Source: a virus (lineage: Duplodnaviria; Heunggongvirae; Uroviricota; Caudoviricetes). Taken from it: a DNA stretch of 64,000 nucleotides. Below the pieces are notes generated by a model. The model saw only the letters and a program-made list of their open reading frames with translations, did no database searches and was not told where the DNA came from. Positions 4,443 to 62,521 of this stretch are shown piece by piece. The DNA is taken from the IMG/VR virus record IMGVR_UViG_3300021963_000032; one strand, given 5' to 3'. A program made the translations under genes and the position numbers. Every line of letters starts with the position of its first letter. The stretch's first letter is position 1.

Positions 4443-5132
4443 ATGAGTTTAATAGGAACAAAGATAGTTGAAGTACCTTATTTTTTAAATCAGATTACCG
4501 AAATAGACAAGGATATACTAATAGTGGGAGAGTGCAAAGGTGGTACTGAGGGCATTGGTGAAGGTTTGTTCGAGCTTGGCTGTACTAATGTTACAACAAC
4601 CGACATTCTAGAAGCGCTACCAGAATCGTGGCTACGTAAGACTACAGATTGGGAGCATATTAAAACTGACTTTATAAAATTCGATGAAACTAAAAAGTAC
4701 GACTTTATAATCTCGATATCGGTGTTTGAGCATTTTGGTATGTTCTGGGAAGGTAAGGCCTATGATGTTGATAGTGACATTGAGGATATGGTTCTATGGA
4801 ATCATGACTTACAAGGGATACTCAAAGCTAGTAGATTAATGAAGGATGAGCACTCTAAGGTAATCATCACACTACCAATCGGACCTTATATGAATTACCA
4901 AGATTCAGGGTATCCGTTTTTGCGATACTACGATCTGCAAAGGCAAAATCTAGTTAAGAAGACACTTGCAGATAACGGCTTTAGAGTTAGTGATGAGAAG
5001 TTCTTTCTTTCAACTGATTATACAGAATGGTTTGAGGCTGATCAAAATATCAACTCACCAGAGAGTTATAGAAAGTACTGCAACCCATACACTCCTAACA
5101 TGATTTGGGGTCTAACAATCCAAAAACAATGA
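4443..5132 (+). CDS. Putative methyltransferase-like protein
   Basis: ILIVGECKGGTEGIGEG...FDFIISISVFEHFG gives a weak Rossmann / MTase-like pattern. Confidence 0.3.
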   Translation: MSLIGTKIVEVPYFLNQITEIDKDILIVGECKGGTEGIGEGLFELGCTNVTTTDILEALPESWLRKTTDWEHIKTDFIKFDETKKYDFIISISVFEHFGMFWEGKAYDVDSDIEDMVLWNHDLQGILKASRLMKDEHSKVIITLPIGPYMNYQDSGYPFLRYYDLQRQNLVKKTLADNGFRVSDEKFFLSTDYTEWFEADQNINSPESYRKYCNPYTPNMIWGLTIQKQ

Positions 5133-5824
5133 AAGTAATATATCGAATTTCAGATGCAGGCTACAATAAAGTAAAGCCTGCTTACATAGACAACGAATCA
5201 TGTTTAAAGAATTTCTGCAATGTGTTTTTTGATCACATTCACGATATTCACATTATCGCAGATAACTGCAGCGAGTCTACATTGAACATGATTAAGAAGT
5301 ATATTGATCCATCTATGATCGAGCAGGTATCTGTAGGACATGGAGCTGGGACGTTCAATCTAGCAGTGGATAAGGCATTAAGTTGGAACGACGATGAGAT
5401 TGTTTATTTTGTAGAAAACGACTACCTACATAAGCAAAACTCCCCAGATATCTTAAAGGAGGGGTTTGATTTAGGATCTTCCTTTGTTGCTCTATATGAC
5501 CATCCTGATAAGTACATGGAACCGACATCTGGAGGTAATCCATACTGCGAAGGTGGTGCTGAAGACACTAGAGTTTATTTATCGAACTCCTGCCATTGGA
5601 AGATAACAAACTCAACAACAATGACTCTCGCTGCCAAAGTATCCACTCTGAAGAGATGTGAAAGTATCATGAGAAAGCACACATCCGGAACTCACCCAAA
5701 TGATTTTCAGATGTTCCTAGAGCTGCGTGAGAATAATGAATTATTAATAACACCACTTCCAGGATATGCAACACATGGAGAGACAGCGTGGCTATCACCT
5801 TTAACAGATTGGAGTAGTATATGA
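5129..5824 (+). CDS. hypothetical protein, possibly GT-like
   Basis: An internal ATG at 5129 avoids the overlap with the upstream gene. IVYFVENDY motif. Confidence 0.35.
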   Translation: MKVIYRISDAGYNKVKPAYIDNESCLKNFCNVFFDHIHDIHIIADNCSESTLNMIKKYIDPSMIEQVSVGHGAGTFNLAVDKALSWNDDEIVYFVENDYLHKQNSPDILKEGFDLGSSFVALYDHPDKYMEPTSGGNPYCEGGAEDTRVYLSNSCHWKITNSTTMTLAAKVSTLKRCESIMRKHTSGTHPNDFQMFLELRENNELLITPLPGYATHGETAWLSPLTDWSSI

Positions 5825-6594
5825 TATCAGTTATAATACCAACGTACAAAAGCCCAGATGCTTTAGATTTATGTTTGCGATCTGCAATAGAAGGGCAGGC
5901 AGAGAAAAATCAGATCATAGTAGTAGTCGATGGATTCTACGAACTTAACAAACACGTACTAGACAAGTGGGCTGATTCAATTGATGTGCTCGATATGGAA
6001 GAGAATGTAGGATTGTGCAGAGGAACAAACCTAGGAGTGTACAATGCAGCTCACGATAAAATCCTAATCGTAAACGACGATAACGTATTCCCTCAGCATT
6101 GGGATACAATCTTGGAGGAGGAATGGGAAGAGGGAGCAGTCATTGCACCAAACCAAATAGAACCTTATGCAAGTATGTTTCCTCAGTTCATTATCGAAGA
6201 CTTGGGACGAGATCCTAAAACATTTGACTTAGAAGCTTTTTGGAGATTTAATTACCACTACGCTTCGGGGGATAAGAAAGATGAGAGTGGATCGACACTA
6301 CCTATTTATATGGCTAAGATGGACTACCTTCGACTAGGAGGTTGGGATGAAAACTATGAAATGGGAATGGTAGCAGATTGGGACTTCTTTTTGAAATGTA
6401 AGCTAAGCGGTCTAAAGATGGTTAGAAACTGGAACCTTCACTTCTACCACTTTGTATCGCTATCGACAGCAACTCCTGAGAAGATACAACAACGTAAGGA
6501 TACTGAAATAGCAGGACATGAGTATGCTAAGTATAAGTGGGGTGGATATATAAGAAACAAACGAGAAGATAATAGCAAAATTATAATCAAATAA
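5821..6594 (+). CDS. Glycosyltransferase family 2
   Basis: MISVIIPTYKSPDALDLCLRS...IIVVVDGF. Confidence 0.6.
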   Translation: MISVIIPTYKSPDALDLCLRSAIEGQAEKNQIIVVVDGFYELNKHVLDKWADSIDVLDMEENVGLCRGTNLGVYNAAHDKILIVNDDNVFPQHWDTILEEEWEEGAVIAPNQIEPYASMFPQFIIEDLGRDPKTFDLEAFWRFNYHYASGDKKDESGSTLPIYMAKMDYLRLGGWDENYEMGMVADWDFFLKCKLSGLKMVRNWNLHFYHFVSLSTATPEKIQQRKDTEIAGHEYAKYKWGGYIRNKREDNSKIIIK

Positions 6595-14465: not shown

Positions 14466-14509
14466 CAAAAATAATTGTTCATAACTTTGTAATTATTTTG
14501 ATATAACTG

Positions 14510-17075: not shown

Positions 17076-17179
17076 AGTCAGGTGGCGGAATGGTAGACGC
17101 TCAGGGTGATAATTAAGTAGTTCGGATTATAAATACAACCTCGATGGACTACATGTAGGTTCGAATCCTGCCCTGACTA
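17076..17179 (+). tRNA. Non-canonical 104-nt tRNA-like element, Leu-like D-arm, possibly intron- or insert-containing
   Basis: The acceptor AGTCAGG/CCTGACT is identical to the element at 14592. D-arm GCGGAATGGTAGACGC, T-arm GTAGGTTCGAATCCTGC, with about 30 extra nt internally. Confidence 0.35.
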
Positions 17180-17664: not shown

Positions 17665-19650
17665 ATGAAACATATTAGTACAATTCTATTTGTATTGATC
17701 TTTGCTACAAGCTTTGGTCAGTACTGTCCTGCATTAGGACCAGATCAACTCCTTCCATGTGGGTTAGGAACAACGACGTTAACAGCTGACCTATCTCAGT
17801 GTGGACCTGGAGGACCTTCTCCAAAACAAACCACGGATTACCTAGTTAGTAGTATTCCCTATGTTGCTCAAGCTAACACGGGTACTAACATATTCATGAC
17901 AGATGATTCTCAGCAAGGACCTTTTAATATAGGATTCAACTTTTGCTTCTTCGGATCAACCTATACTCAATTCTATATAGGATCGAATGGTTGGATATCT
18001 TTCTCAGGAGGGCAGCCAACTACATTTACCTCTTCACCAATTCCAACAGCAAACCCTCTAGTACCTAAGAATTGTGTAATGGGGCCATGGCAGGATTGGC
18101 ATCCAGGACTTGGTGGTCAGATTAAATATCAAACAACTGGAGTAGCTCCATGTAGAAAATTAACAGTAAGTTGGATAGGTGTACCTATGTTTAGTTGTAC
18201 GGGAAACCAAGGAACATTCCACATTGTGGTCTATGAGTCAACTAACGCAATCGAAACCTATATTCAAGATAAACCTGCATGTACACAGTGGCAAGGTGGT
18301 ACCGCAGTAGAAGGTATACACAATACAGCTGGTTCAATAGGGATAGCCGTTCCTGGAAGAAACTCCACAGCATGGACTGCAAACAATGATGCTTGGAGGT
18401 GGACTCCAAATGGTCCTCTAGTTAATCCAGTACTGACTTGGTACCAGGTAGGTAATCCAGTAGCTATTGGAACTGGACCATCTATAACAGTCACACCACC
18501 CGCTGCAGGTGCTCAGTATACTTGTCGTTTTGTTTATCCTATTTGTAATGTAGGATGGGCTACTTGTAATGCTTTTGCAGGATTGGGACCAGATACAGTA
18601 TTCGTACAACCTGGACCTCCGTATCCAGTAGTAAGTCCAATTGCAGGTTCAGATACTCTATGTTCGTATTCAACAAATGAGCTATATACAATTATCAATC
18701 AACCTGGAGTAAATTACTTATGGGACGCTGTTGGGACTATTACGTCAGGTCAAGGTGCAGATAGCATTACTATTGATTGGAATGCAATTGCTCCAGGATT
18801 CATTCCTGGTGGGGTTATGGTTACTCCGGAAGCAAATGGTTGTGTAGGTGCACCTGCTTCTTTTGATTTATTTATACTAGATGTTGTTCCAATTATTCAA
18901 CCGATAGGACCATTCTGCGAATATGACGATAGCACTCAGCTAGTTGGTAATCCATTAGGTGGAGCATTCTCAGGAGTAGGAGTTTCTAATACTTACTTCA
19001 ATCCACAAAACGCAGCTGGCGTTGATACAATTACTTATACATACACTCTCAGTGGCTGTACGTTTGATACAACAACTCTTGTTACCGTGTACCCAAAACC
19101 TACCTTAGATTCTATTACTCCTCACAATACATTCTTTGAGATATGTGAGCTAGAAGTGGCCACAATAACATGGGATGCAGATGGTTATCCTGCAAATGGA
19201 TATACGGAGTGGACTTGGTTAGGACAGAATACTCAGCAACCATTATTATCTGTAACAGTACCTTGGGATTCAGCAGGAACATATAATGTGTCTGCAGTCT
19301 ATTGGGCTAATGGTTGTGTGTCGGATCCACAAACTGCTTACATCACAGTAATTCAGTGTCCGGAAACTTTATTCTATATTCCTAATTCATTTACACCAGA
19401 TGGTAACGAATGGAATCAAGTATGGCAACCTATAATTACTAGTGGGATAGATCCATACAACTATCAGGTGTTGGTGTACAATCGTTGGGGAGAAGTTGTA
19501 TTTGAGTCTCACGACATTGAAGTTGGATGGGATGGAACTTATAAAGGTAGGCCATGCATGGAAGGTGTATACTTTTACATAGTAAGCTGTACCGATACTA
19601 AAACAGCTAAGAAGTTTAACCTACAAGGACATATTTCTTTATTAAAATAA
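17665..19650 (+). CDS. Secreted Cys-rich protein with T9SS type-B C-terminal sorting domain (gliding-motility-associated CTD)
   Basis: Signal peptide MKHISTILFVLIFATSFGQ. The C-terminus FYIPNSFTPDGNEWNQVW...YNRWGEVVFES...GWDGTYKG matches the TIGR04131-like CTD motif. Confidence 0.55.
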   Translation: MKHISTILFVLIFATSFGQYCPALGPDQLLPCGLGTTTLTADLSQCGPGGPSPKQTTDYLVSSIPYVAQANTGTNIFMTDDSQQGPFNIGFNFCFFGSTYTQFYIGSNGWISFSGGQPTTFTSSPIPTANPLVPKNCVMGPWQDWHPGLGGQIKYQTTGVAPCRKLTVSWIGVPMFSCTGNQGTFHIVVYESTNAIETYIQDKPACTQWQGGTAVEGIHNTAGSIGIAVPGRNSTAWTANNDAWRWTPNGPLVNPVLTWYQVGNPVAIGTGPSITVTPPAAGAQYTCRFVYPICNVGWATCNAFAGLGPDTVFVQPGPPYPVVSPIAGSDTLCSYSTNELYTIINQPGVNYLWDAVGTITSGQGADSITIDWNAIAPGFIPGGVMVTPEANGCVGAPASFDLFILDVVPIIQPIGPFCEYDDSTQLVGNPLGGAFSGVGVSNTYFNPQNAAGVDTITYTYTLSGCTFDTTTLVTVYPKPTLDSITPHNTFFEICELEVATITWDADGYPANGYTEWTWLGQNTQQPLLSVTVPWDSAGTYNVSAVYWANGCVSDPQTAYITVIQCPETLFYIPNSFTPDGNEWNQVWQPIITSGIDPYNYQVLVYNRWGEVVFESHDIEVGWDGTYKGRPCMEGVYFYIVSCTDTKTAKKFNLQGHISLLK

Positions 19651-23256: not shown

Positions 23257-24540
23257 ATGAATAATCTCGATAAACAGTACACCACACTACTCCAAGACAT
23301 ATTGGACAATGGAGTAACCAAACAAGATCGCACTGGTACTGGAACAGTATCTGTATTTGGTAGACAAATTAGACATAAGATGTCAGAAGGGTTTCCTTTA
23401 CTTACAACTAAGAAGATGCCATTTAAACTTATAGCAACAGAGCTGATGTGGTTCCTTCGTGGTGATACAAACATTAAATTTCTAGTAGACAACAACTGTC
23501 ATATTTGGGATGGCGATGCTTATAAAGCGTATGAACAATGGTATGAACATATGAGTAAAACCACACCATTTACTGTACCTAAAAGGTTTACACAAGATGA
23601 GTTGATTAAGGCAATTAGTCTTGATGAGTATCATGCTAAGCATTTTGGCGAGTTAGGTCCAATTTATGGTAAGCAATGGAGAAAGTGGTCATATGAAGCT
23701 GGTGAAGTTAATAAAGGTGGTATAGACCAAATCGCAAACCTAATCAACGACCTTAAAACAAACCCAGACTCTAGGCGTTTAATGGTTAATGCTTGGAATG
23801 TTGGTGAATTGGATTCAATGGTTCTCCCACCTTGTCATTATGGATTTCAAGTTTATACAAGGGAGTTGAGTTTAGATGAAAGAGGCGAATTATTTAGAAA
23901 AACTTACCCAGATAAATCAGTTAGTGATTTCGCTCCACAAGGAATGGAAGTACAATCACTAAGCCACCAACTATATACAAGATATAATAATGCAAATATT
24001 CCAACCAGAGCAATCTCTTTAATGTGGAATCAGCGTTCAGTAGATACATTCTTAGGTTTACCATTCAACATTGCATCTTATGGATTGTTATTGGAAATAA
24101 TTGCTAAAGCAGTTAATATGGTTCCAGATGAATTGATCGGTAACTTGGGTGATACACATTTGTATTTGGATCATATTGAACAAGCAAAGGAACAGATTGG
24201 CAAAAAACTAGATCTAGATGAACGACAAGCAATGGTCACCCAAGAAATGTTTAATCAAATATATAATGCTGGAGACAGTAGCACATTAACACATTCTGAA
24301 ATTGATCAATGGGACATTCCAAGAATCAAAACCAGAGAACCCTATCCACTACCAACTTTAAATATCAATACAGAATTTTGGCCAACAGAATCTGGAGAGT
24401 GTGGTGTAGGTCCTATTGATGCGACAGCAGTATTTGCAGGGTTCGCTAACGATCATTTCTGCAAGTGTCTGTTGGAAGAAGACTTGCAACTAGGCAACTA
24501 TAAATCACACCCACACATTAAAGCACCTTTATCAAATTAA
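23257..24540 (+). CDS. thyA: Thymidylate synthase family (ThyA / pyrimidine hydroxymethylase-like), enlarged to 427 aa
   Basis: DRTGTGTVSVFG, FPLLTTKKMPFK, ELMWFLRGDTN and the catalytic VLPPCHYGFQVY motif. Large insertions make it longer than canonical 264-316 aa ThyA. Confidence 0.65.
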   Translation: MNNLDKQYTTLLQDILDNGVTKQDRTGTGTVSVFGRQIRHKMSEGFPLLTTKKMPFKLIATELMWFLRGDTNIKFLVDNNCHIWDGDAYKAYEQWYEHMSKTTPFTVPKRFTQDELIKAISLDEYHAKHFGELGPIYGKQWRKWSYEAGEVNKGGIDQIANLINDLKTNPDSRRLMVNAWNVGELDSMVLPPCHYGFQVYTRELSLDERGELFRKTYPDKSVSDFAPQGMEVQSLSHQLYTRYNNANIPTRAISLMWNQRSVDTFLGLPFNIASYGLLLEIIAKAVNMVPDELIGNLGDTHLYLDHIEQAKEQIGKKLDLDERQAMVTQEMFNQIYNAGDSSTLTHSEIDQWDIPRIKTREPYPLPTLNINTEFWPTESGECGVGPIDATAVFAGFANDHFCKCLLEEDLQLGNYKSHPHIKAPLSN

Positions 24541-41695: not shown

Positions 41696-42030
41696 CGATA
41701 GACATTCATACTATGTGAGATGAGTAGAGTCACGATTCATAAGATAGACACTAGTATAGTAAAGGAGGGTTTGTATATCATAGGTGGGAGGGCGGACGTA
41801 TACACATTCCTCCCGCGCGAACCAAATTTTTGCTATAGAAGTTATACACTCAACACATGTGCATATCTTTTCATAACCTTCCTTCCCTCTCTACCCCCGT
41901 GTAACTAACTGATACTCAGGAGGTTACTCCAACCGGTACCCTCTGTGCCCCCCAGGAATCTAATACAACTGGGAAGTTATGAACCGAGGATTGTGCAAAA
42001 CTTTTTCTTTTATTTTTTTGTCCCTAGCTG

Positions 42031-42069
42031 TTGCTAGATCGAATAAAAGGGAGGACCTTTAGGTATAAA
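42031..42069 (+). promoter_or_regulatory. Conserved phage promoter (TTGCT-N22-CTTTAGGTATAAAGATTGAGAGAT)
   Basis: Family motif upstream of the ATG at 42081. Confidence 0.5.
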
Positions 42070-42080
42070 GATTGAGAGAT

Positions 42081-44309
42081 ATGAATAATACACAGACACA
42101 GACTTATCAAGAATTGCTTCGCAAGGCGCTGGGCAAGAAGAACACTAACACTGCCGCGCGTAAGTTAGATGTCAAGAAGAACTATGCTAGCTTCTGGATG
42201 GATGACTTAGGAAAGGGTAACGATCGCTTTGGTCTTGGTAGTGACTTCTCTGGGAAGAGTAGTGACATCGTCAAGGCTATCAAGTTGAACTCTTACCGTA
42301 AGGCGATTGCAAACTTCGTTAAGATCCTTACTAACAAAGAGATCCCCGTGAGGTTTGCTGGTAGTGATTCTTACACAGATGGTAAGAGTGTTACTATCTC
42401 TTCTGATATTAAGGACAATAACTTTGATGTCTCTGTGGGATTGGCCTTGCACGAGGCTTCTCACATTTTGTTGACTGACTTCTCTGTCCTTCCCGCACTA
42501 CGTGATGGGAAGATTGAAGCAGCTAAAGACTTGGACGGAAGGTTGGTTAAAGACCTTTTGAACTTCATTGAAGATAGACGTATTGACCACTATGTGTTTA
42601 GTACTTCTCCTGGGTACAAAGCTTACTACCACAAGTTGTATGAGCACTACTGGAACAATGACAAGACGGTTATCAAAGGCCTTTTGTCTGCTAAGTTCAG
42701 AGATGCTAAGAAGCTTGACAGTTGGATGTTCCAGATCATCAACATGATGAATCCCGCATTTGATGCGACTGTTATGCCTCGCTTGCAGGAGATCGTTACC
42801 TTGATTGGAATACCGACTATCAGTCGTTTGAAGTCTACACAAGACGCTCTTGACATTGCCATCCAGGTTGCACAGATCATCACAGACGAGATGCGCCAAG
42901 CGATCGAAGATGCAGCTAGCCAACCGGAGCCAGAACAAGGGCCAGGTCAGCCTAGTCCGGATGCAGACGGTGAAGCAGGAGAGGATCAAGAGTCCGGCAG
43001 TGAAAGTGATGATTCAAGTGAAAGTGATGATGGAAGTGAAAGTGATGATGGAAGTGAAAGTGATGATTCAAGTGAAGAAGGTCAGGGATCTAGTGAGGGT
43101 GAAGAAGGGGAAGACGGAGACGGAGAAGCTTCTACCGGTGGTACTGATCTGACTCCAGAAGAAGAGGCTGCTATCGAGAAGGTGCTTAGAGAGCAACGTA
43201 AGTTCATGGACGGAGAGAGCGGGAAGAAGCAGGCAGGTAGAAACCTCGAAAGAAAGTTAGATAAGACTGAGAAAGAGGGAGTTACGATCGAGCAAGTAGG
43301 TGGCAAGTATACTTGTCTTAACTACGATGTTACCGGTAAGGAGTTCGTTGCCGCAGCTGATGCGAAGGATAAGATACAAGAAGCTAGAAACAATGTGTAC
43401 AAGGAAGCATACGGATCACCAGCGAAGAAGGCAGCAGAAGCAGCATTAGCTGAGCTCCGCACTACTAGTGAGTTATTAAGTAATGACTACTTCAGCAGTC
43501 CTAGTGCACGATATGCTAAGGCAATCGACAAGGGAATATTGATGGGACAGTTGCTTGGTAAGAAGCTACAGATGCGTAACGAGTCACGTGAGAGAATCGA
43601 TAACAGACTGAGAAGCGGGAAGATAGACAACAGACGTCTAGCAGCTGCAGGGTACGGAATCGAGAGCATCTTCCACCAGGTGACAATAGACAAGTACAAG
43701 AAAGCTAACCTACACATGAGCTTAGATGGCTCAGGCAGTATGGGAGGAACCAACTGGGAGAACACAGCCATGATGGCAGCAGCAATTGCTAAAGCTCTTA
43801 CCTTCACATCAAACGTGGCAATGCAGATATCAATCAGGGTAACAACTAACGATAGCGGAACCCTTCCTGCTAACTACTTCATCTACGATTCTCGCAAGAA
43901 TACACTAAGAGAGCTACAGGTGATACTAAAGGCATTCAATCCTAACGGGATGACACCAGAAGGTTTGTGCTTCGAGAGTATGCTTAAGAAGAACCAACTA
44001 GTGAAGTCTAGCGCAGACATGGATAGCTACTTCGTTAACCTTTCCGACGGAGGACCTGGAGGAGTAGGACAGTACGGAGGATCAGTTGCAACGGAGCATA
44101 CAAGAGCACAAGTTACTAAGATGCGTAACGAGCTAGGTATGGGAGTATTAAGCTACTTCATGACACAGTACGGAGGTACAGACTTCGCTAGCAGTGGTAG
44201 CGGTAGAGCTTTCCAGGCCATGTACGGAAAGGCAGCTACCAACATTGCACCGGACAACGTAATGGAGATTGCTAAGACACTTAACAATTTATTTATGAAC
44301 AAGGGATAA
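42081..44309 (+). CDS. CobT-like von Willebrand factor A domain protein with an acidic Ser/Asp/Glu repeat
   Basis: MIDAS-like HMSLDGSGSMGG. Internal (SESDDG/SESDDS)x4 and EGEEGEDGDGEA acidic tract. Partner CobS-like ATPase lies at 48707. Confidence 0.5.
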   Translation: MNNTQTQTYQELLRKALGKKNTNTAARKLDVKKNYASFWMDDLGKGNDRFGLGSDFSGKSSDIVKAIKLNSYRKAIANFVKILTNKEIPVRFAGSDSYTDGKSVTISSDIKDNNFDVSVGLALHEASHILLTDFSVLPALRDGKIEAAKDLDGRLVKDLLNFIEDRRIDHYVFSTSPGYKAYYHKLYEHYWNNDKTVIKGLLSAKFRDAKKLDSWMFQIINMMNPAFDATVMPRLQEIVTLIGIPTISRLKSTQDALDIAIQVAQIITDEMRQAIEDAASQPEPEQGPGQPSPDADGEAGEDQESGSESDDSSESDDGSESDDGSESDDSSEEGQGSSEGEEGEDGDGEASTGGTDLTPEEEAAIEKVLREQRKFMDGESGKKQAGRNLERKLDKTEKEGVTIEQVGGKYTCLNYDVTGKEFVAAADAKDKIQEARNNVYKEAYGSPAKKAAEAALAELRTTSELLSNDYFSSPSARYAKAIDKGILMGQLLGKKLQMRNESRERIDNRLRSGKIDNRRLAAAGYGIESIFHQVTIDKYKKANLHMSLDGSGSMGGTNWENTAMMAAAIAKALTFTSNVAMQISIRVTTNDSGTLPANYFIYDSRKNTLRELQVILKAFNPNGMTPEGLCFESMLKKNQLVKSSADMDSYFVNLSDGGPGGVGQYGGSVATEHTRAQVTKMRNELGMGVLSYFMTQYGGTDFASSGSGRAFQAMYGKAATNIAPDNVMEIAKTLNNLFMNKG

Positions 44310-44772
44310 AAAGTTATGAACCGGTAGCTTTAGAGGGGGTATGCCTAGAGGAGACTAGAGGGGTATCCCCCCCTATATAAGACGCGATCTAGCGAGGGGG
44401 ATGCCCCCATGAAAGACGGTGATATAGCAGGGGGATATCCCCTTAAAAACACGCTTAAAACACCGTAAAACACCCCCTATAATTACGTGAAAACCGAATG
44501 GATATCGCCCTATATTGGGGAGGTTACATGCGTTCACATTTCGATGCCAATTTTTTTGCTATAGCAACATTGACACTTCGATTACACTGCGTGTAATGTA
44601 TATGTTAAATCCTCCCTTCCCTCTTGGGAAGGTCAGGCCCATCCCCATGGGGAGCCTCGAGGTTAAAAGTGGCACCCCTTGTTCATAACTTATTCCAAAA
44701 CCGAGCATATTTATACAAGTAAACCGGAGGTAAAAAATAAAAAATTTAGTATATTTCCCCTATAAAACACAC

Positions 44773-45009
44773 ATGGATATTTCGAGAAAAACACTAATGA
44801 AACGCGCGGGCTTGCTTGAAGAAGAGCAACGAATTAAGCAGGTAAGAATGACACAACAAATGTGGGATAAACTGCCATTTGACACGCGTGCAAACATGCT
44901 GTTATCAGCTGTTAAAGATCCGGATGATATCGAGCAGTATGTTGATATGGATTGGAACAATCTACCGGCTGAAGTTACACAAAACATGGTGGTATACATT
45001 AAAGCATAA
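44773..45009 (+). CDS. hypothetical protein
   Basis: ORF. Confidence 0.35.
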   Translation: MDISRKTLMKRAGLLEEEQRIKQVRMTQQMWDKLPFDTRANMLLSAVKDPDDIEQYVDMDWNNLPAEVTQNMVVYIKA

Positions 45010-45011
45010 CG

Positions 45012-45332
45012 ATGATCAAATTTAAACAAATATTGCAAGAAAAGGAGCTCAATCCGTACTCACAGTCGGTAGGTTCATTTGCGGCAAATTACGTGGGCTT
45101 CCAGGTATCAATCAGTAACGGGGACCTAGTGGAAGGTGGCGAGATTAGCGGCGATTTTCTAGTGGTTGGATACGGTAGATTAATTGAAAACACAACCGGT
45201 GATTTCAATGCAAGAACTAACCCATCTAGCGAGGTATTAATCGTGCAAGATGCGGATGGAGTTGGCTCAGGACTACACTCTATATTCTGTAGTGTTATGG
45301 AGCTACAATCTAAGGTAAAAGTAAAACAATAA
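45012..45332 (+). CDS. hypothetical protein (N-terminal MIKFKQILQE motif family)
   Basis: ORF. The N-terminus is shared with the genes at 53582, 21221, 54253, 54639 and 55178. Confidence 0.4.
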   Translation: MIKFKQILQEKELNPYSQSVGSFAANYVGFQVSISNGDLVEGGEISGDFLVVGYGRLIENTTGDFNARTNPSSEVLIVQDADGVGSGLHSIFCSVMELQSKVKVKQ

Positions 45333-45339
45333 CACACAT

Positions 45340-45648
45340 ATGAAAGACAATATTTCAAAACAAAGACTGCAGGAACTAGCAGCAATCAACAACCCGTTTC
45401 TAGTGGCAGAAGCAGTGGACGCTAACGCCATGATCAAACTAGAAGTGATGGTAAAAGCAGGTACATTAATCGATATGTTCGGGGGAGCAGAAACGCTAGC
45501 AGACACTGTAAACGACCCTAACAAATTCAGAGATTTTACACGTACAATCCAGGACGATCTAGGAGAATGGTTAGCAGGACCAGGCGGAGACGAGTGGGCT
45601 AACGACGGCGTAGAATCTGGAAATTATGACGATTATATTCCTTTCTAA
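45340..45648 (+). CDS. hypothetical protein (N-terminal SKQRLQELA motif)
   Basis: ORF. The N-terminus resembles that of the gene at 46554. Confidence 0.4.
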   Translation: MKDNISKQRLQELAAINNPFLVAEAVDANAMIKLEVMVKAGTLIDMFGGAETLADTVNDPNKFRDFTRTIQDDLGEWLAGPGGDEWANDGVESGNYDDYIPF

Positions 45649-45661
45649 ATAACACACAAAC

Positions 45662-46147
45662 ATGAAACTAAGTAACGTAAAAGCAATCATCCAACAAGAG
45701 GTGAAAAAAGTACTCAAAGAAGCGGTAGATCCGGACAACTGGCCTATCGGGTACTTTGAGGTTAAAGACACGTTTGAAATCACACCCGGTGGTGGTTGGG
45801 GCGTTAGATTTAACAAAGGCCAAATCGTACAAGTAGCACAATCTAAAGTCGATCGAAGCTTACAAACAATCACAACTTGGGATGCCCTTAAAAACGAGTG
45901 GGTAGTGAAAGCTCCACCTATTAGCGGGTACAAAGATAACGGCGGAATGTTCCCTATTTCAAGCTTTGGAGGGTCGCGTGCTTGGACTGCTAAGTTTGCT
46001 CAAAACACTACTCCTCTATCTAAAGGTGCGGCTGAATCCAAAGCGAAATCAATGGCAGCTGAGACGACATTAAGCGCTAGAGATGCGGTTAAAATGCTCA
46101 ACACATTGAAGCCAAATCAAATGGTTAAAATCACGATTGTTAAGTAA
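45662..46147 (+). CDS. hypothetical protein (N-terminal MKxSxxxAIIxxEVxxVLKEA family)
   Basis: ORF. The N-terminus is shared with the genes at 46153, 47308 and 47525. Confidence 0.4.
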   Translation: MKLSNVKAIIQQEVKKVLKEAVDPDNWPIGYFEVKDTFEITPGGGWGVRFNKGQIVQVAQSKVDRSLQTITTWDALKNEWVVKAPPISGYKDNGGMFPISSFGGSRAWTAKFAQNTTPLSKGAAESKAKSMAAETTLSARDAVKMLNTLKPNQMVKITIVK

Positions 46148-46152
46148 TCAAG

Positions 46153-46428
46153 ATGAAGAAATCACAACTACAAGCAATCATCAAAGAAGAGGTTAGAGGC
46201 GTGCTTAAAGAGGCTTCATTCTTCGATAACATGAACGACGAAACCAAAGCACTTTATCGCGAATATGCACAAAAGATTGATATCTTGGATCGCACCGCGA
46301 TCTACAATCACGACCTTTTGAATAAGGCGCTTATGGCTGATCCTCGTGTTCAAAAGAGCGCTCAAAAGAATACATTGCAAAAGGCATTAGCATGGGCAAT
46401 TACGTTTGCTCAAGAGATGGAAAGATAA
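46153..46428 (+). CDS. hypothetical protein (same N-terminal motif family)
   Basis: MKKSQLQAIIKEEVRGVLKEA. Confidence 0.4.
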   Translation: MKKSQLQAIIKEEVRGVLKEASFFDNMNDETKALYREYAQKIDILDRTAIYNHDLLNKALMADPRVQKSAQKNTLQKALAWAITFAQEMER

Positions 46429-46553
46429 TCCTAACCTGCTGAAAGCAGCGACAAATAAGTAAGGAGGGAAGGCCAAAAATATGCGGGAACTGGTGCGAAA
46501 AAATGCGCCGGTTCTTGTTTGTTTATGCGGGACTATTTATATAAAAGTTAACT

Positions 46554-46775
46554 ATGAAACACGAGACATCTAAGCAGAGATTAATGGAGTTGGCTAACGT
46601 CAGTGAAGCTATGGAAACCCCATCTGCTGCGGCGTCTGAGATACTATCTTTGCTTGCACATCCGAACATAAAGAAGAGTATGGATGCTCTTTCAGATATG
46701 ATCGGTGACCAGGAGTTTATGGCTGTTAAGAAGCTGTACGATGGTTTGTATATGGAGCTTAAAAAGTACGAATAA
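46554..46775 (+). CDS. hypothetical protein
   Basis: ORF with SKQRLMELA motif. Confidence 0.35.
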   Translation: MKHETSKQRLMELANVSEAMETPSAAASEILSLLAHPNIKKSMDALSDMIGDQEFMAVKKLYDGLYMELKKYE

Positions 46776-47302
46776 TGTTTAAGTATATACGGGACATCTT
46801 GACGACAATTACACCAGGACAGCGGATCGTTGCTTTGGCTTTTTTGTTGATGAGTATTACCGTAATTGCTGTGGGACCTAAGATTGTAGGTAGCTTTACT
46901 CAAGACACTGAGGAGTTGCAGATTAAGGTGGAATCGCAGAAGAATGAGATTGCTGATCTTACCCAGCGAGTTGGTGATTTGAATCGTCAAGTCATTACTA
47001 ACCAAACAGAGTGTACTAACCAGTGGATGTCCCGAGAGCGTGAGATTCTTGGTGTTATCAATTTGATAGAGCAAGAGGCGTTGTCTACAAACGGAAGAAT
47101 AGTGGCTACTAGTTCAACAGTCGTTCGCAGACCTAACACTTATAACTACGATAACGATACAATGCAAAGAGTGTCTATGATGGTTGTAGCACCAGAACCA
47201 GAAGTGGTGAAAACCGTTACGCATAAAGTTGATAACAGAAAGATGCTCGGTATGGTGTCAAAGCTGAAGGGTGAAATACAAAAGGACTTAGGCAAACAAT
47301 AA
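46775..47302 (+). CDS. hypothetical membrane / coiled-coil protein
   Basis: TM helix LAFLLMSITVIAV followed by a coiled coil. Confidence 0.4.
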   Translation: MFKYIRDILTTITPGQRIVALAFLLMSITVIAVGPKIVGSFTQDTEELQIKVESQKNEIADLTQRVGDLNRQVITNQTECTNQWMSREREILGVINLIEQEALSTNGRIVATSSTVVRRPNTYNYDNDTMQRVSMMVVAPEPEVVKTVTHKVDNRKMLGMVSKLKGEIQKDLGKQ

Positions 47303-47307
47303 ATTAT

Positions 47308-47523
47308 ATGAAGAAATCAGAATTACAAAAGATAATCCGTGAGGAAGTAAAAACAGCTCTAGGTGAGCAAGTTAATCCCGAGTTGGATGCTATGGTGAAG
47401 AAATTCGTTAAGGGTCTAGCTGCCAAGTATCAGTACGGAGAGCAGGACGCTCTTTATGCTATATTCGAATCATTGAAGCGCCAGCAAATGCTAGGTAACG
47501 ACGTAAATTACAGACCATACTAA
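47308..47523 (+). CDS. hypothetical protein (N-terminal motif family)
   Basis: MKKSELQKIIREEVKTALGEQ. Confidence 0.4.
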   Translation: MKKSELQKIIREEVKTALGEQVNPELDAMVKKFVKGLAAKYQYGEQDALYAIFESLKRQQMLGNDVNYRPY

Positions 47524-47524
47524 C

Positions 47525-48244
47525 ATGAAGAAATCACAACTAAAATCACTTATACGAGAGGCTGTTTCGTCTCGATTGGCAGAAGCTCAAGACTTTATGG
47601 CTCAGCTGAAAACTTCTGGTAAATTGGTAGATCCAACTGGTGTTGGTAGTTCTCCTAGATACTCTGAAACGTATCAACTAACGGGAGATACTAAGCATGA
47701 TTCTATGCGATTCTTCTACAAGCCTACCGACAAGAATAAGCCGTACGGTCTTGTATATATTCAAGGTCATGGATTAGATAGTCGTGTAATGTCATCTGTT
47801 GGATTAGGTTATCACACGCAGTCAGGAATCGCTGGTGTTGATGGCTATATTCACGATGGTAATTATAATACAAGTTGGGTATCTGAGCAAGACTTTATCA
47901 AAGCTGTAACAGATTTTAGCAATGGATTTGGTAAGTATGCTAAGTCGTATAACGACTTCTACAAGGGTAGAGGTTTGTCTCCAGGAGTTGGTGATATGAT
48001 GCAAGAAGGTGTTATGTCAGACATCGACATCATCGCACAAGAGTCAGCTACATTTGAGGAGTTTGTTAGCAAAATTGCTGCAGATCCAAAATATAAAAGC
48101 TTAGATGCAAATGACGCTGAAGTGAAGGATTTCTTGCAACAAATGTACGATGATGCACAAGTTGTAAGTGAAACAAAACACGTTAAAAAACTATCAATCA
48201 AAGAAGCAATTCGAAGTATCATTCGCAAAGAATTAAGAAAATAA
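47525..48244 (+). CDS. hypothetical protein (N-terminal motif family)
   Basis: MKKSQLKSLIREAVSSRLAEAQ. Confidence 0.4.
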   Translation: MKKSQLKSLIREAVSSRLAEAQDFMAQLKTSGKLVDPTGVGSSPRYSETYQLTGDTKHDSMRFFYKPTDKNKPYGLVYIQGHGLDSRVMSSVGLGYHTQSGIAGVDGYIHDGNYNTSWVSEQDFIKAVTDFSNGFGKYAKSYNDFYKGRGLSPGVGDMMQEGVMSDIDIIAQESATFEEFVSKIAADPKYKSLDANDAEVKDFLQQMYDDAQVVSETKHVKKLSIKEAIRSIIRKELRK

Positions 48245-48706: not shown

Positions 48707-49924
48707 ATGATTATTAAAAACACAAAAACACAAGTTATGAGTAAATTTCCAATGATTGCCGAAGTAAAGATGGCCCCTGGCAAAGGCGGTAAGATGGTTG
48801 TTAAAGCCTTCGATTCAGTTTCCGGAGAGGAAGTGAAAGGTATTGTTTATGTAACGCTTCAAGGAGCTTACAAAGCTGGTATGAACCTTGCTAAGATGAG
48901 TGAAGATTCTTCTTTCACTCGAGTTGATTCTACTGTCTCTGTTGAGATGTTAGAGCAGATTATTAGTGGTGCTGAGGTTTCAGTTCCGGAGGTTGCTCCT
49001 GCTACTAATGACGTTATGTCTTTCTTAAAGACTTGTGTTGAGAAACGTCCAGAGACACTCTACATTGAGGACCTTAACTGGAAGTTTATGTGTCGTACTG
49101 CGATGCGTGGAGGTAATATGTTGATGACTGGTCCTACCGGATGTGGTAAGTCTCAGACAGCCATTGCGGTTGCTAAGGCTCTTGGACGTGAGTTGTTCTA
49201 TGTTAACTTAGGTGCTACTCAAGATCCTCGAGGAACATTGATTGGTAACACTCACTTCTCTAAAGAGGTTGGTACTTTCTTTAACGAGTCTGCTTTCGTA
49301 AAAGCCATTCAGACTCCTAACACAGTGATCTTGCTTGATGAGATTTCTCGTGCGCATCCTGAGGCTTGGAATATCTTGATGACGGTTCTCGATCCAGGAC
49401 AGAGATACTTGAGATTGGATGAGGCTGTTGGAGCTCCTACAGTACACGTTGCAGAGGGAGTAGCGTTCATCGGAACTGCTAACATTGGTAGTGAGTATAC
49501 TGCCACAAGAGTAATGGACCGAGCGTTGTTAGACCGATTCACTATCGCTGAGATTCCTTACTTAACTGTAGCTCAGGAGTCTAAGTTGCTGACTCAGTTA
49601 CACCCAGGATTGTCTAAGAAAGTTTGTCAGAACATCGCTGAGATTGCTGGTCAGACTCGTACAGAGGTTATGACAGATAGTCCACGAATCTCTAGTGCGA
49701 TTTCGACTCGTGCAGCGATTGAGATGGCCGGGTTAATGTCTGACGGATTCGCAATCGAAGAGACAGCTCAAGTAAGTATCTACCCACTGTACTCTAACGA
49801 CGGAGGTATGCAGTCTGAGAGAACTTATGTGAAGCAGTTGGTTCAGAAGTACATCAACGATGGAACTGCTGATAACTTGACGGGTGCTGAAAGTGCTGAG
49901 GTTGAATCAAACTTACCTTTCTAA
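48707..49924 (+). CDS. CobS-like / MoxR-family AAA+ ATPase
   Basis: Walker A LMTGPTGCGKSQ. Walker B ILLDEISRAHPEAWNILMTVLD. Confidence 0.55.
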   Translation: MIIKNTKTQVMSKFPMIAEVKMAPGKGGKMVVKAFDSVSGEEVKGIVYVTLQGAYKAGMNLAKMSEDSSFTRVDSTVSVEMLEQIISGAEVSVPEVAPATNDVMSFLKTCVEKRPETLYIEDLNWKFMCRTAMRGGNMLMTGPTGCGKSQTAIAVAKALGRELFYVNLGATQDPRGTLIGNTHFSKEVGTFFNESAFVKAIQTPNTVILLDEISRAHPEAWNILMTVLDPGQRYLRLDEAVGAPTVHVAEGVAFIGTANIGSEYTATRVMDRALLDRFTIAEIPYLTVAQESKLLTQLHPGLSKKVCQNIAEIAGQTRTEVMTDSPRISSAISTRAAIEMAGLMSDGFAIEETAQVSIYPLYSNDGGMQSERTYVKQLVQKYINDGTADNLTGAESAEVESNLPF

Positions 49925-62105: not shown

Positions 62106-62485
62106 GGGGCTGCTTTGGCTTTGACAAGCAGACGCGTTCTTTGAGATGATGCAAGCAGGGTTAGATGGAAACCCTTAAACACCTATCACAACATAAATGC
62201 AAACGTAGAACTTTCTACATGGACCTTCGAAGATGTTATGGCATTCGTAGGTGGTGAATTAGCAGTAGCTGCATAGTCGCTCCCGTATCACTCATGGGAC
62301 ATTAAATAGAAGTGAACGAAAGAGTACATCTCGCTGACTCATTAAATAAGAGTGGGGAACATTGGTCCGATTGACGATGTTGAAGAACTGATCGGTATTT
62401 TGTCTAGTTAGAAAACGAGACTAAGCTTGTGAACGAGTCTGTTTGAATATCTGTTTGGACGAGGGTTCGACCCCCTCCAGCTCCA
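62106..62485 (+). ncRNA. ssrA: tmRNA (SsrA)
   Basis: 5' GGGGCTG...GACAAGCAGACGCG and 3' GGACGAGGGTTCGACCCCCTCCAGCTCCA form a tRNA-like acceptor and T-arm. The internal tag ORF ...GCATTCGTAGGTGGTGAATTAGCAGTAGCTGCATAG encodes ...AFVGGELAVAA* ending in the typical LAxAA. Confidence 0.6.
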
Positions 62486-62521
62486 CTATCTCTCGTGTCG
62501 AAAGGCACAACTTGTGTGTTA

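Follow-up and report, generated by a model that had tools for sequence, protein, structure and literature searches.

The 64,000-nt stretch of the Caudoviricetes record IMGVR_UViG_3300021963_000032 that was analyzed here (the window) carries all of its genes on the + strand. A 745-aa CobT-like open reading frame (ORF; 42072-44309) is separated from about nine small, tightly packed + strand ORFs, an ORFan block at 44773-48244, by a non-coding gap at 44310-44772, the largest in the window once the tRNA and transfer-messenger RNA (tmRNA) regions are set aside. The gap holds an element made of an array of G/C dyads and two invariant boxes, here called P2 and P1; it is real non-coding DNA with rigid spacing, shared by a family of uncultured freshwater Bacteroidota phages. 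The CobT-like label derives from weak PHROG matches (E ~1e-6 to 1e-9) and from the source annotations of homologues as von Willebrand factor A (vWA)/CobT proteins; a CobS/MoxR-like AAA+ gene lies at 48707-49924. Elsewhere, the window encodes 23 tRNAs (12.1-15.8 kb), a tmRNA, thymidylate synthase, RNA and DNA ligases, NAMPT and phosphoribosyl pyrophosphate synthetase. No close cultured phage was found. A 99%-identical CobT-like protein is encoded on a 160,559-nt ENA contig, k141_1337282 of ERZ27296343, the length of which implies a genome of at least 160 kb.

The motifs that a preliminary description of the gap had listed from the sequence were all found in place. GGGGNATNCCCC occurs twice in 64 kb, both times in the gap (0.01 expected), the window's three palindromes of the form G≥4, 0-6 nt, C≥4 all lie there, and the gap contains 13 G or C runs of at least four nucleotides against 0.58 expected from the rest of the window. 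Random recurrence of the palindrome motifs elsewhere in the window was not seen, the G/C palindromes being confined to the gap. The same description had spoken of a GC-rich island in AT-rich surroundings; the GC content is indeed raised (0.45-0.475, widest range 0.39-0.475, versus 0.396 for the window), but the claim was overstated, as the upstream 745-aa gene is equally GC-rich (0.44-0.49). The CCCCTATA boxes it had noted (four in the window, three of them in the gap versus 1.06 expected) are present as three exact copies and one imperfect copy, but they do not make up a repeat family of their own: they either flank the G/C dyads on the outside or belong to -7/-10-like boxes, and the one at 44757 is the end of a promoter -7 box merging into a TAAAA ribosome-binding motif.

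Copies of the element were found by DNA-pattern scans of IMG/VR and the JGI metagenomes, and on contigs encoding CobT-like homologues. Seventeen homologous, non-identical copies, including the window's own, came from freshwater samples at several sites (loci designated by L numbers); a partial copy (L005) and one near-identical to the window (L029) were additional. The P2 core and the P1 dyad are (nearly) invariant despite the divergence of the CobT-like proteins, which share 46-76% identity with that of the window in six aligned full-length copies and ~56-99% in the other fetched homologues; in all, 1148 CobT-like proteins match at E≤1e-30. Intergenic length ranges from 434 to 847 nt, with frequent indels outside a core at -112 to +120. 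Since the flanks carry so many indels, the constant spacing of the core is explained by constraint and not by recent ancestry. Stop codons interrupt every one of the six reading frames in 13 or more of the 17 homologues, and three of the frames in the whole set, which bears out the gap as non-coding; a protein-coding exon was rejected, no ORF being conserved in the family.

Upstream of P2, three or four units of ~35 bp each consist of a G4-6/C4-7 dyad followed by an A- or T-tract. Across homologues, the dyads measure 10-15 bp in total and vary in the length of their centre; the window has three, with runs of G4-5 and C4-7. Relative to P2, the dyad centres lie at -42, -77 and -111/-112 (±1) in the W-type sequences (n=11) and at -54/-91 in the L-type sequences. 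Dyad b stands at -77 ±0.5 in 9 of the 11 W-type sequences under a strict G4/C4 criterion, L033 and L035 carrying weaker G/C sites in the array; in L033, Tandem Repeats Finder (TRF) calls a 33-nt unit ×2.4. The tract that follows the P2-proximal dyad is AAAAAC in the window clade and T5-6 in L002, L006, L007 and L008, an orientation flip. The preliminary description had taken the palindromes for an iterated, functional set; they prove to be iterated and conserved, and we hold them to be functional. With a period of 35-37 bp, the centres stay in fixed register (±1 nt) with the two invariant boxes at 16 of 17 homologous loci, only L010 being without a strict palindrome. Judged by its sequence, this register looks like that of a protein-binding array.

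The P2 box and the P1 dyad are each unique in the window, and the distance between P2 and P1 is 100-101 nt in 17/17 homologues, though ~45 nt of the spacer are poorly conserved. Within this interval, a T7-9 run is invariant 64-66 nt after P2, and CTATAG is kept in 16/17; in the whole window, TTTTGCTATAG has just two occurrences, 41828 and 44554. The P1 box, GACACT-N4-TTACACTGCGTGTAATGT (44572-44599), is essentially invariant. Its dyad keeps the 6-3-6 geometry in 16/16 distinct sequences, with 96.9% of cells paired. Compensatory changes affect two pairs (TTACAC..GTGTAA to TAATAC..GTATTA in L034/L036), in one lineage and so as one event hitting both, and single-arm changes occur in both directions (C·A or U·G), with no strand preference. 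P1 has a T-run where the phage's standard promoters carry theirs and a TTG/TAG-type box 20-21 nt before TA; its dyad lies in the spacer, an arrangement that resembles an operator. Feature coordinates are collected in Table 1.

Table 1. Features of the intergenic element, its partial second copy and the standard promoters of the window
Feature	Position	Strand	Remark
AAGTTATGAACCG	44311-44323	+	reverse-orientation copy of CGGTTCATAACTT motif
Palindrome 1, GAGGGGGTATGCC	44333-44345		degenerate G-run site with weak dyad symmetry; kept in L009/L030, degenerate in L001
Dyad a, GAGGGGTATCCCCCCC / GGGGTATCCCCCCC	44358-44373		centre -112; then TATATAAG; dyad at -110 to -112.5 in 11/11 W-type
Dyad b, GAGGGGGATGCCCCC / GGGGGATGCCCCC	44394-44408		centre -76.5; then A-tract ATGAAAGAC
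Dyad c, AGGGGGATATCCCC / GGGGGATATCCCC	44429-44442		centre -42.5; then TTAAAAAC; dyad at -42 ±0.5 in 11/11 W-type
Phased A-tracts AAAACAC(C/G) ×3	44445-44474		TRF: period 10, 2.8 copies, 89% matches
CCCCTATA boxes	44370, 44474, 44757		imperfect CGCCCTATA at 44506
P2 box, ATAATTACGTGAAAACCG	44479-44496	+	core ATAAT(T/A)ACGTGAAAA in 17/17; carries -7/-10-like TATAATTA
Spacer	44497-44549		length conserved, sequence poorly so; semi-conserved box TTACATGCGTTCACATTTCGATG at 44524-44546
A-T7 run, then GCTATAGC	44550-44565	+	position of upstream (UP-like) element
-33/-35-like box, TTGACACT	44570-44577	+	only ACA(C/T) conserved in relatives
TTGACA, 18 nt, TAATGT	44570-44575, 44594-44599		
P1 dyad, TTACAC-TGC-GTGTAA plus TGT	44582-44599		operator-like, fixed 6-3-6 geometry
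Pyrimidine-rich tract (CCTCCCTTCCCTCT at 44611-44624) with the two hairpins listed next	44606-44654	+	
Hairpin CCTTCCCtcttGGGAAGG	44615-44632		
Hairpin CCCATCCCCATGGGGAG	44638-44654		
Blocks AAAGTGGCACCCC, GTTCATAACTT (forward motif), TCCAAAACCGAGCATATTTATAC	44666-44716	+	conserved within window clade
Gene-proximal box GGAGGT-N18-TATATTTC, then TAAAACACAC ribosome-binding-type stretch, ATG 44773	44726-44775	+	
Partial second copy (E')	41824-41890	+	AAATTTTTGCTATAG, TTATACACT, CACATGTG dyad, TATCTTTT -7 box, CCTTCCTTCCCTCT leader; upstream of CobT-like gene
Standard promoters	8810, 14507, 19661, 26878, 27770, 31254, 32530, 34343, 37126, 38311, 39550, 42028, 48335, 48648, 51148, 52026, 52532	+	

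Searched at gathering and E-value thresholds with the window and eight loci, Rfam gave no match other than tRNAs and the tmRNA, which lie elsewhere. RNAalifold, run on 10 and then 17 sequences and on both strands, returned no consensus fold (-1.4 to -6.9 kcal/mol; core energy -1.4 kcal/mol with 17 sequences) and predicted only a P1 dyad of 4-6 bp. Single-sequence folding was equal on both strands (z=-3.3), as expected of palindromes. The A/T flip after the P2-proximal dyad is a change that an RNA terminator would not tolerate and an intrinsic DNA bend would. Because an RNA fold is absent, the strands fold equally, the tract flips and the P1 geometry is fixed, these comparisons point to a constraint at the DNA level and not at the RNA level, as would be expected of protein-bound duplex DNA with strict geometry.

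Some observations would suit transcription terminators. At L002, L006, L007 and L008, a strict palindrome at -54 is followed by T5-6 in the canonical shape, and L010 has a weaker GGGTACCCCCCC site followed by TATTTTT. The dyads lie directly 3' of a stop codon, and the polyG/polyC stem-loops of promoter-early stem-loop (PeSL) cassettes terminate transcription in RB49 and phi1 (PMC2839356). It is nevertheless improbable that the element works at the RNA level only, the dyads serving as tandem intrinsic terminators or 3'-end stabilizing hairpins of the CobT-like mRNA and the rest as an ordinary promoter region. The resemblance to Rho-independent terminators, a G/C-rich stem before T5-6, belongs to the L-type relatives, whereas the window clade has an A-tract at the same position, and a scan of 43800-45300 finds no terminator. 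Loops would measure 0-4 nt, and several dyads with centres of 0-1 nt would form no hairpin loop unless G-C pairs opened. The ordinary terminators of this phage also differ, with a mixed-sequence stem and T7. Finally, a terminator gives no reason for dyads to be locked to downstream boxes, their centres held within ±1 nt of a box 42-112 nt away across divergent phages.

A small non-coding RNA gene, yielding either a C/U-rich RNA from P1 or a ~70-nt RNA from P2 to the T-run, is the least probable of the explanations weighed here. It would account for invariant boxes at promoter-like positions, for a conserved T7-9 run downstream of P2 and for the pyrimidine-rich, G-poor tract that follows P1 in 17/17 homologues (C 0.30-0.63, G 0-0.23). 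That tract, however, is not conserved in sequence and varies from ~20 to 90 nt in length, no hairpin adjoins the T-run in any homologue, and neither an Rfam match nor a consensus structure or covariation beyond the 6-bp dyad was obtained. In some relatives the tract has grown into tandem repeats, with a 10-nt unit (CCTCCCTTTG) ×7.3 at L036 3937-4007 and a 19-nt unit (AGGGAAGTCAGGCCCCACT) ×3.3 at L033 3934-3996; the window holds one such 19-nt unit at 44626-44645. The first local hairpin of the window is a 25-nt insertion absent from L001.

The promoters of the phage were considered next to those of its likely host. In Bacteroidota, the sigma-A consensus is TTTG/TAnnTTTG and the ribosome-binding motif is TAAAA (PMC2483708). 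The 661-aa product of the ORF at 17665-19650 bears at its C terminus a sorting domain for type IX secretion (CHU_C, PF13585; E=5e-15, above the gathering threshold), a Bacteroidota-specific export signal on a phage gene. On the combined evidence of this domain, promoters of the TTTG/TAnnTTTG type and the TAAAA motif, the host is evidently a member of Bacteroidota, which makes E. coli promoter grammar the wrong yardstick. The hexamer pair TTGACA-N18-TAATGT, earlier described as E. coli-like, fails in this respect and also in conservation: only the ACA of TTGACA is invariant among the relatives (TAGACA, TCGACA, ATACAC, AAGACA, TTAACA). A Bacteroidota LexA (SOS) box was rejected as well, the P1 dyad TTACAC-N3-GTGTAA being unlike the known motifs GGA-N5-TCC and CTAA-N5-TTAG (PMC8565304). 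Promoters of the N4 hairpin type or of single-subunit RNA polymerases were dismissed, because each box is present only once and a polymerase of that kind was not seen.

Standard promoters of the phage conform to a T-rich stretch followed by CTGTTGCA-N18-TA(T/C)(C/A)TTTA(G/C)G and were found at 17 + strand sites (TTG-N20-TAnnTTTA) just 5' of start codons. The fuller motif reads CTGTTGCA-N4-CG(G/A)-N11-TA(T/C)(C/A)TTTA(G/C)G, often ends in CCTTTAGGTATA(A/G)A and lies 15-40 nt upstream of the start; CTGTTGCA alone occurs 15 times, always on the + strand, versus 2.6 expected. The extra conserved positions suggest a phage-specific promoter class. Since the window has no standard promoter between 42028, which serves the CobT-like gene, and 48335, transcription of the ORFan operon has to begin in the gap, or else reach it by read-through from upstream. 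Within this interval, the site at 44724-44757 looks most like a promoter; it coincides with the gene-proximal box, which has a good -7 (TATATTTC) and a poor -33 and takes rank 38 of 64,000 by position weight matrix (PWM). Both clades carry (G/T)(G/A)AGG(A/T)-N18-TATATT before the downstream gene, then a TAAAA-type stretch, even though that gene is a different one in L002/L007/L008. A conserved alternative start, CTAATG, lies at 44797.

AAGTTATGAACCG and the site at 44681-44691 form an 11-13 nt inverted repeat that brackets the element. A motif of this length, (CG)GTTCATAACTT, occurs in forward orientation at 14477, 48305, 51118 and 44681 and in reverse at 41974 and 44311; the 13-mer at 41974-41986 is identical to AAGTTATGAACCG. 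The standard promoters at 14507, 48335 and 51148 each have the forward CGGTTCATAACTT motif exactly 30 nt upstream, while reverse copies are found 53 nt upstream of the 42028 promoter and directly 3' of the CobT-like stop codon. It may be the binding site of an orientation-independent factor. A CRISPR-like array or a miniature inverted-repeat transposable element was excluded: the repeats diverge too much or are too short, and the 11-13-mer at either end is associated with promoters and recurs elsewhere in a single orientation. A mini-ORF of the form ATG AAC CGN TAG/TAA (M-N-R-stop) was also observed at 44314-44325, just 3' of the CobT-like stop. It recurs in L009 with a synonymous Arg codon and is repeated upstream of the L009 CobT-like gene, and L030 has an equivalent; its conservation may simply reflect that of the AAGTTATGAACCG motif.

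Gene order differs around the element. Most copies lie directly 3' of the CobT-like gene, and most relatives have the order CobS-x-CobT-element-ORFans; L011 has other upstream genes (a tRNA and small ORFs). The downstream gene of one relative encodes an unrelated ORFan of 78 aa, that of another is methylglyoxal-synthase-like, and others have ORFs of 90-183 aa. The window lineage shows the order E'-CobT-element-ORFans...CobS, with a CobS 88% identical to that of L001, and the partial copy E' sits at its synteny breakpoint. E' matches the element with an nhmmer E-value of 0.004; it shares the T-run-GCTATAG and the CCTYCCTTCCCTCT leader, and its small dyad CACATGTG differs; its -7 box, TATCTTTT, is a good one. 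It is also present in L009/L029/L030 and absent from L001/L006/L007/L008. The pair suggests, from sequence likeness, that the P1 type is a small promoter class. E' belongs to a second non-coding region, 41696-42071, seen in the window/L009/L029/L030 lineage only and carrying a partial P1 promoter and leader; a 62-aa ORF within it (41720-41908) is probably spurious. The synteny supports a possible role of the element as a recombination joint.

Such a position raises the question whether the element is a packaging (pac) site, or else a site dedicated to site-specific recombination and recognized through the G/C dyads. The phased repeat array with its bends, the coincidence with gene-content breakpoints and the many metagenomic contigs that end within ~300 nt of the element would all fit. 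We consider it very unlikely, though. No terminase or recombinase gene lies nearby, the 160-kb contig carries the element internally, and the contig ends can be put down to assemblies breaking at the core that co-occurring strains share, together with selection for short contigs. Nor does the element behave like a host attachment site or prophage copy: the combined P2...P1 pattern had no match in 185,579 genomes, and the P2 18-mer alone had 12 exact matches there, all of them chance occurrences inside coding sequence and not attB-like. The terminator, small-RNA and packaging explanations each account for part of the data and conflict with the rest.

We tentatively favour a PeSL-like compound module, at once insulator and promoter-operator, heading the hypervariable ORFan block, and would place this reading slightly short of an even chance. 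The gap would be a cis-acting DNA module that works through bound proteins at the boundary between the CobT-like (vWA) gene and the ORFan operon. The units of dyad and A/T-tract would insulate the operon against transcription from the CobT-like gene and perhaps also offer phased binding sites to a phage or host factor. A rigid promoter-operator complex of ~125 bp, comprising P2, P1 and the T-run/CTATAG upstream element, would then time the start of transcription; with its dyad between the -33-like and -7-like positions, P1 could let a dimeric regulator either block or recruit RNA polymerase. Transcripts would open with the pyrimidine-rich leader, and the Bacteroidota-type promoter (GGAGGT-N18-TATATTT) with its TAAAA ribosome-binding stretch would launch the ORFan operon. 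Being conserved between variable flanks, the module may also serve as a recombination joint for the shuffling of gene cassettes, as the PeSL cassettes of T4-type phages do. We infer promoter activity, the existence and identity of binding proteins, an insulator or terminator function and the timing class.

PeSL cassettes of T4-type phages join a stem-loop of the form polyG-loop-polyC to an AT-rich stretch and a strong promoter, lie by ORFans and undergo modular shuffling (Arbiol et al., 2010, PMC2839356; Comeau et al., 2014, PMC4122927). The element is likewise a composite intergenic structure with polyG...polyC stem-loops, an A/T-rich stretch and a predicted promoter, it stands beside small ORFans in a hyperplastic region, gene content changes exactly at it, and a partial copy marks a rearrangement breakpoint. 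In contrast to the single stem-loop of a PeSL, it has three to four phased dyads, which in the window clade have no U-tracts, and it possesses an invariant ~125-bp core, a 100-101 bp spacing and an operator-like dyad that PeSLs do not have. Copy number also separates them, one full and one partial copy in 64 kb versus dozens of PeSLs, as do the Bacteroidota host and a promoter grammar of TTG-N20-TAnnTTTA.

Several observations weigh against a module of this kind. PeSLs and promoter classes are multi-copy, whereas the element is present once with one partial copy in 64 kb, and the window-clade dyads, having no U-tract, are not canonical terminators. P1 and P2 fit the standard promoter model of the phage weakly (PWM ranks 390 and 94 of 64,000), so that they were rejected as members of that class, and relatives do not conserve the -33/-35-like hexamer of P1. 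A regulator gene was not identified: no helix-turn-helix or ribbon-helix-helix domain was detected in the flanking small proteins, and the downstream small proteins gave no significant Pfam or PHROG match, bar one sub-threshold PRANC match. Phased dyad repeats with A-tracts are, moreover, equally typical of iteron origins.

Multi-operator promoter regions are familiar in other phages, such as lambda OR/OL and the p4/p6 early-late switch complex of phi29. The element is comparable to these in having several dyads in fixed register, tandem candidate promoters within ~250 bp and a dyad inside the promoter spacer. It differs in that no cognate regulator gene was identified beside it, that a 35-bp spacing puts neighbouring sites on different faces of the helix, and that its dyads are G/C homopolymers with a centre of slightly variable length.

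An iteron-type replication origin is the other reading we take seriously, although we consider it unlikely. Here, the array would be an "orisome" platform: an initiator would bind the three to four phased G/C dyads, A/T-tracts would bend the DNA, the T-run or AT-rich DNA would melt, and the promoter would supply activating or primer transcription, after the manner of lambda ori or T4 oriE. The even dyad repeats of 35-37 bp, each with its A/T-tract and in fixed register to the invariant boxes, would suit such a platform. So would the 33-nt unit of L033 and the adjoining 19-nt (×3.3) and 10-nt (×7.3) arrays of relatives, the single-copy and highly conserved state of the element, the invariant T7-9 run, and a 26-nt all-A/T block 150 nt downstream at 44732-44757. 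Lambda ori is built from four iterons that have dyad symmetry and A-tracts, along with an AT-rich region and a palindrome on its flank, and T4 and T7 origins are themselves promoters. T4 oriE combines an early promoter with evenly spaced 12-nt iterons (PMC3016281). Like the lambda and T4 oriE origins, the element has evenly spaced repeats of dyad symmetry with an A-tract after each, lies near a predicted promoter, has a separate palindrome to one side, and is conserved as a single copy.

The objections to an origin are equally concrete. GC skew, which had been proposed as a check, is positive and monotonic across the 64 kb with no inflection at 44.5 kb, and the genes do not switch strand, a weak test for a phage. 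No recognizable initiator, helicase or primase gene adjoins or encloses the element, which is flanked by the CobT-like vWA gene and ORFans. Taken as a whole, the region is not AT-rich; beyond the T7-9 run and the 26-nt block it shows no extended AT-rich stretch for unwinding, its 35-37 bp period and G/C homopolymer cores differ from those of lambda ori and T4 oriE, a DnaA-box-like ATGGATA, absent as a conserved feature from the relatives, fits just 6 of 9 positions, and the partial duplicate E' has the promoter-like part only. Of the earlier proposal of an early-region control locus or an ori/pac site, the control locus is the part we prefer and find plausible, whereas nothing positive was found for ori beyond iteron-like anatomy.

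The promoter and origin readings need not exclude each other. It is conceivable, if doubtful, that the 235-bp array (three dyads at 35-bp intervals, ATAAT(T/A)ACGTGAAAA, and TTACAC-N3-GTGTAA exactly 100 bp away) is the platform of an undescribed phage-specific machine. In its most interesting version, it would be the origin, or an origin/early-promoter switch, of a widespread lineage of large freshwater Bacteroidota phages, with the dyads, possibly as cruciforms, acting as iterons for a putative initiator. Overall, the element appears to resemble either a PeSL-like composite cassette or an iteron-like array, in a poorly studied group of phages.

Cis-regulatory DNA of uncultured phages, especially of those on Bacteroidota, is almost unknown. 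This element can be defined precisely by its invariant 15-18-mers and its fixed 35-bp and 100-bp spacings, recurs in freshwater metagenomes and sits where gene content is shuffled. Should it be a promoter-operator/insulator cassette, the "mobile regulatory cassette" idea developed for PeSLs would reach beyond T4-type phages of Proteobacteria, and the element would offer a handle for finding the regulator and the early genes. Should it be an origin, it would be the first sequence-defined one of its lineage. Under either reading, the invariant boxes would be practical markers for related phages and for the start of hypervariable regions.

No DNA match to the element was found in the cultured phages of INPHARED. 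Of the more distant genomes with a CobT-like gene, L015 (CobT 45% identical) does not carry it, and megaphage LR756508 has no gap after its CobT-like gene and no element. L004 was discarded as a homologue, being a chance match to the P2 18-mer. Microcystis phage Mel-JY01 (L013, PP395634.1) has an unannotated 840-nt non-coding region at 5125-5967, one gene downstream of its CobT-like gene; it contains a P2-like TTAACGTGAAAACTGAATG and several AAAACCG boxes, and it was rejected as a relative (nhmmer E=0.69, not significant).

Three further features of the window were recorded. A 104-nt Rfam tRNA match at 17076-17179 (36.3 bits), not called by ARAGORN, could represent a tRNA-like element or a tRNA interrupted by an insertion or intron. 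The thymidylate-synthase ORF at 23257-24540 is 427 aa long and spans only positions 29-307 of the 335-position profile, which hints at a large insertion; an intein, an additional domain or an intron that escaped recognition are possible candidates. Lastly, the phage tmRNA at 62106-62486 (Rfam, 98.6 bits) has an unusually long predicted tag, ANVELSTWTFEDVMAFVGGELAVAA.

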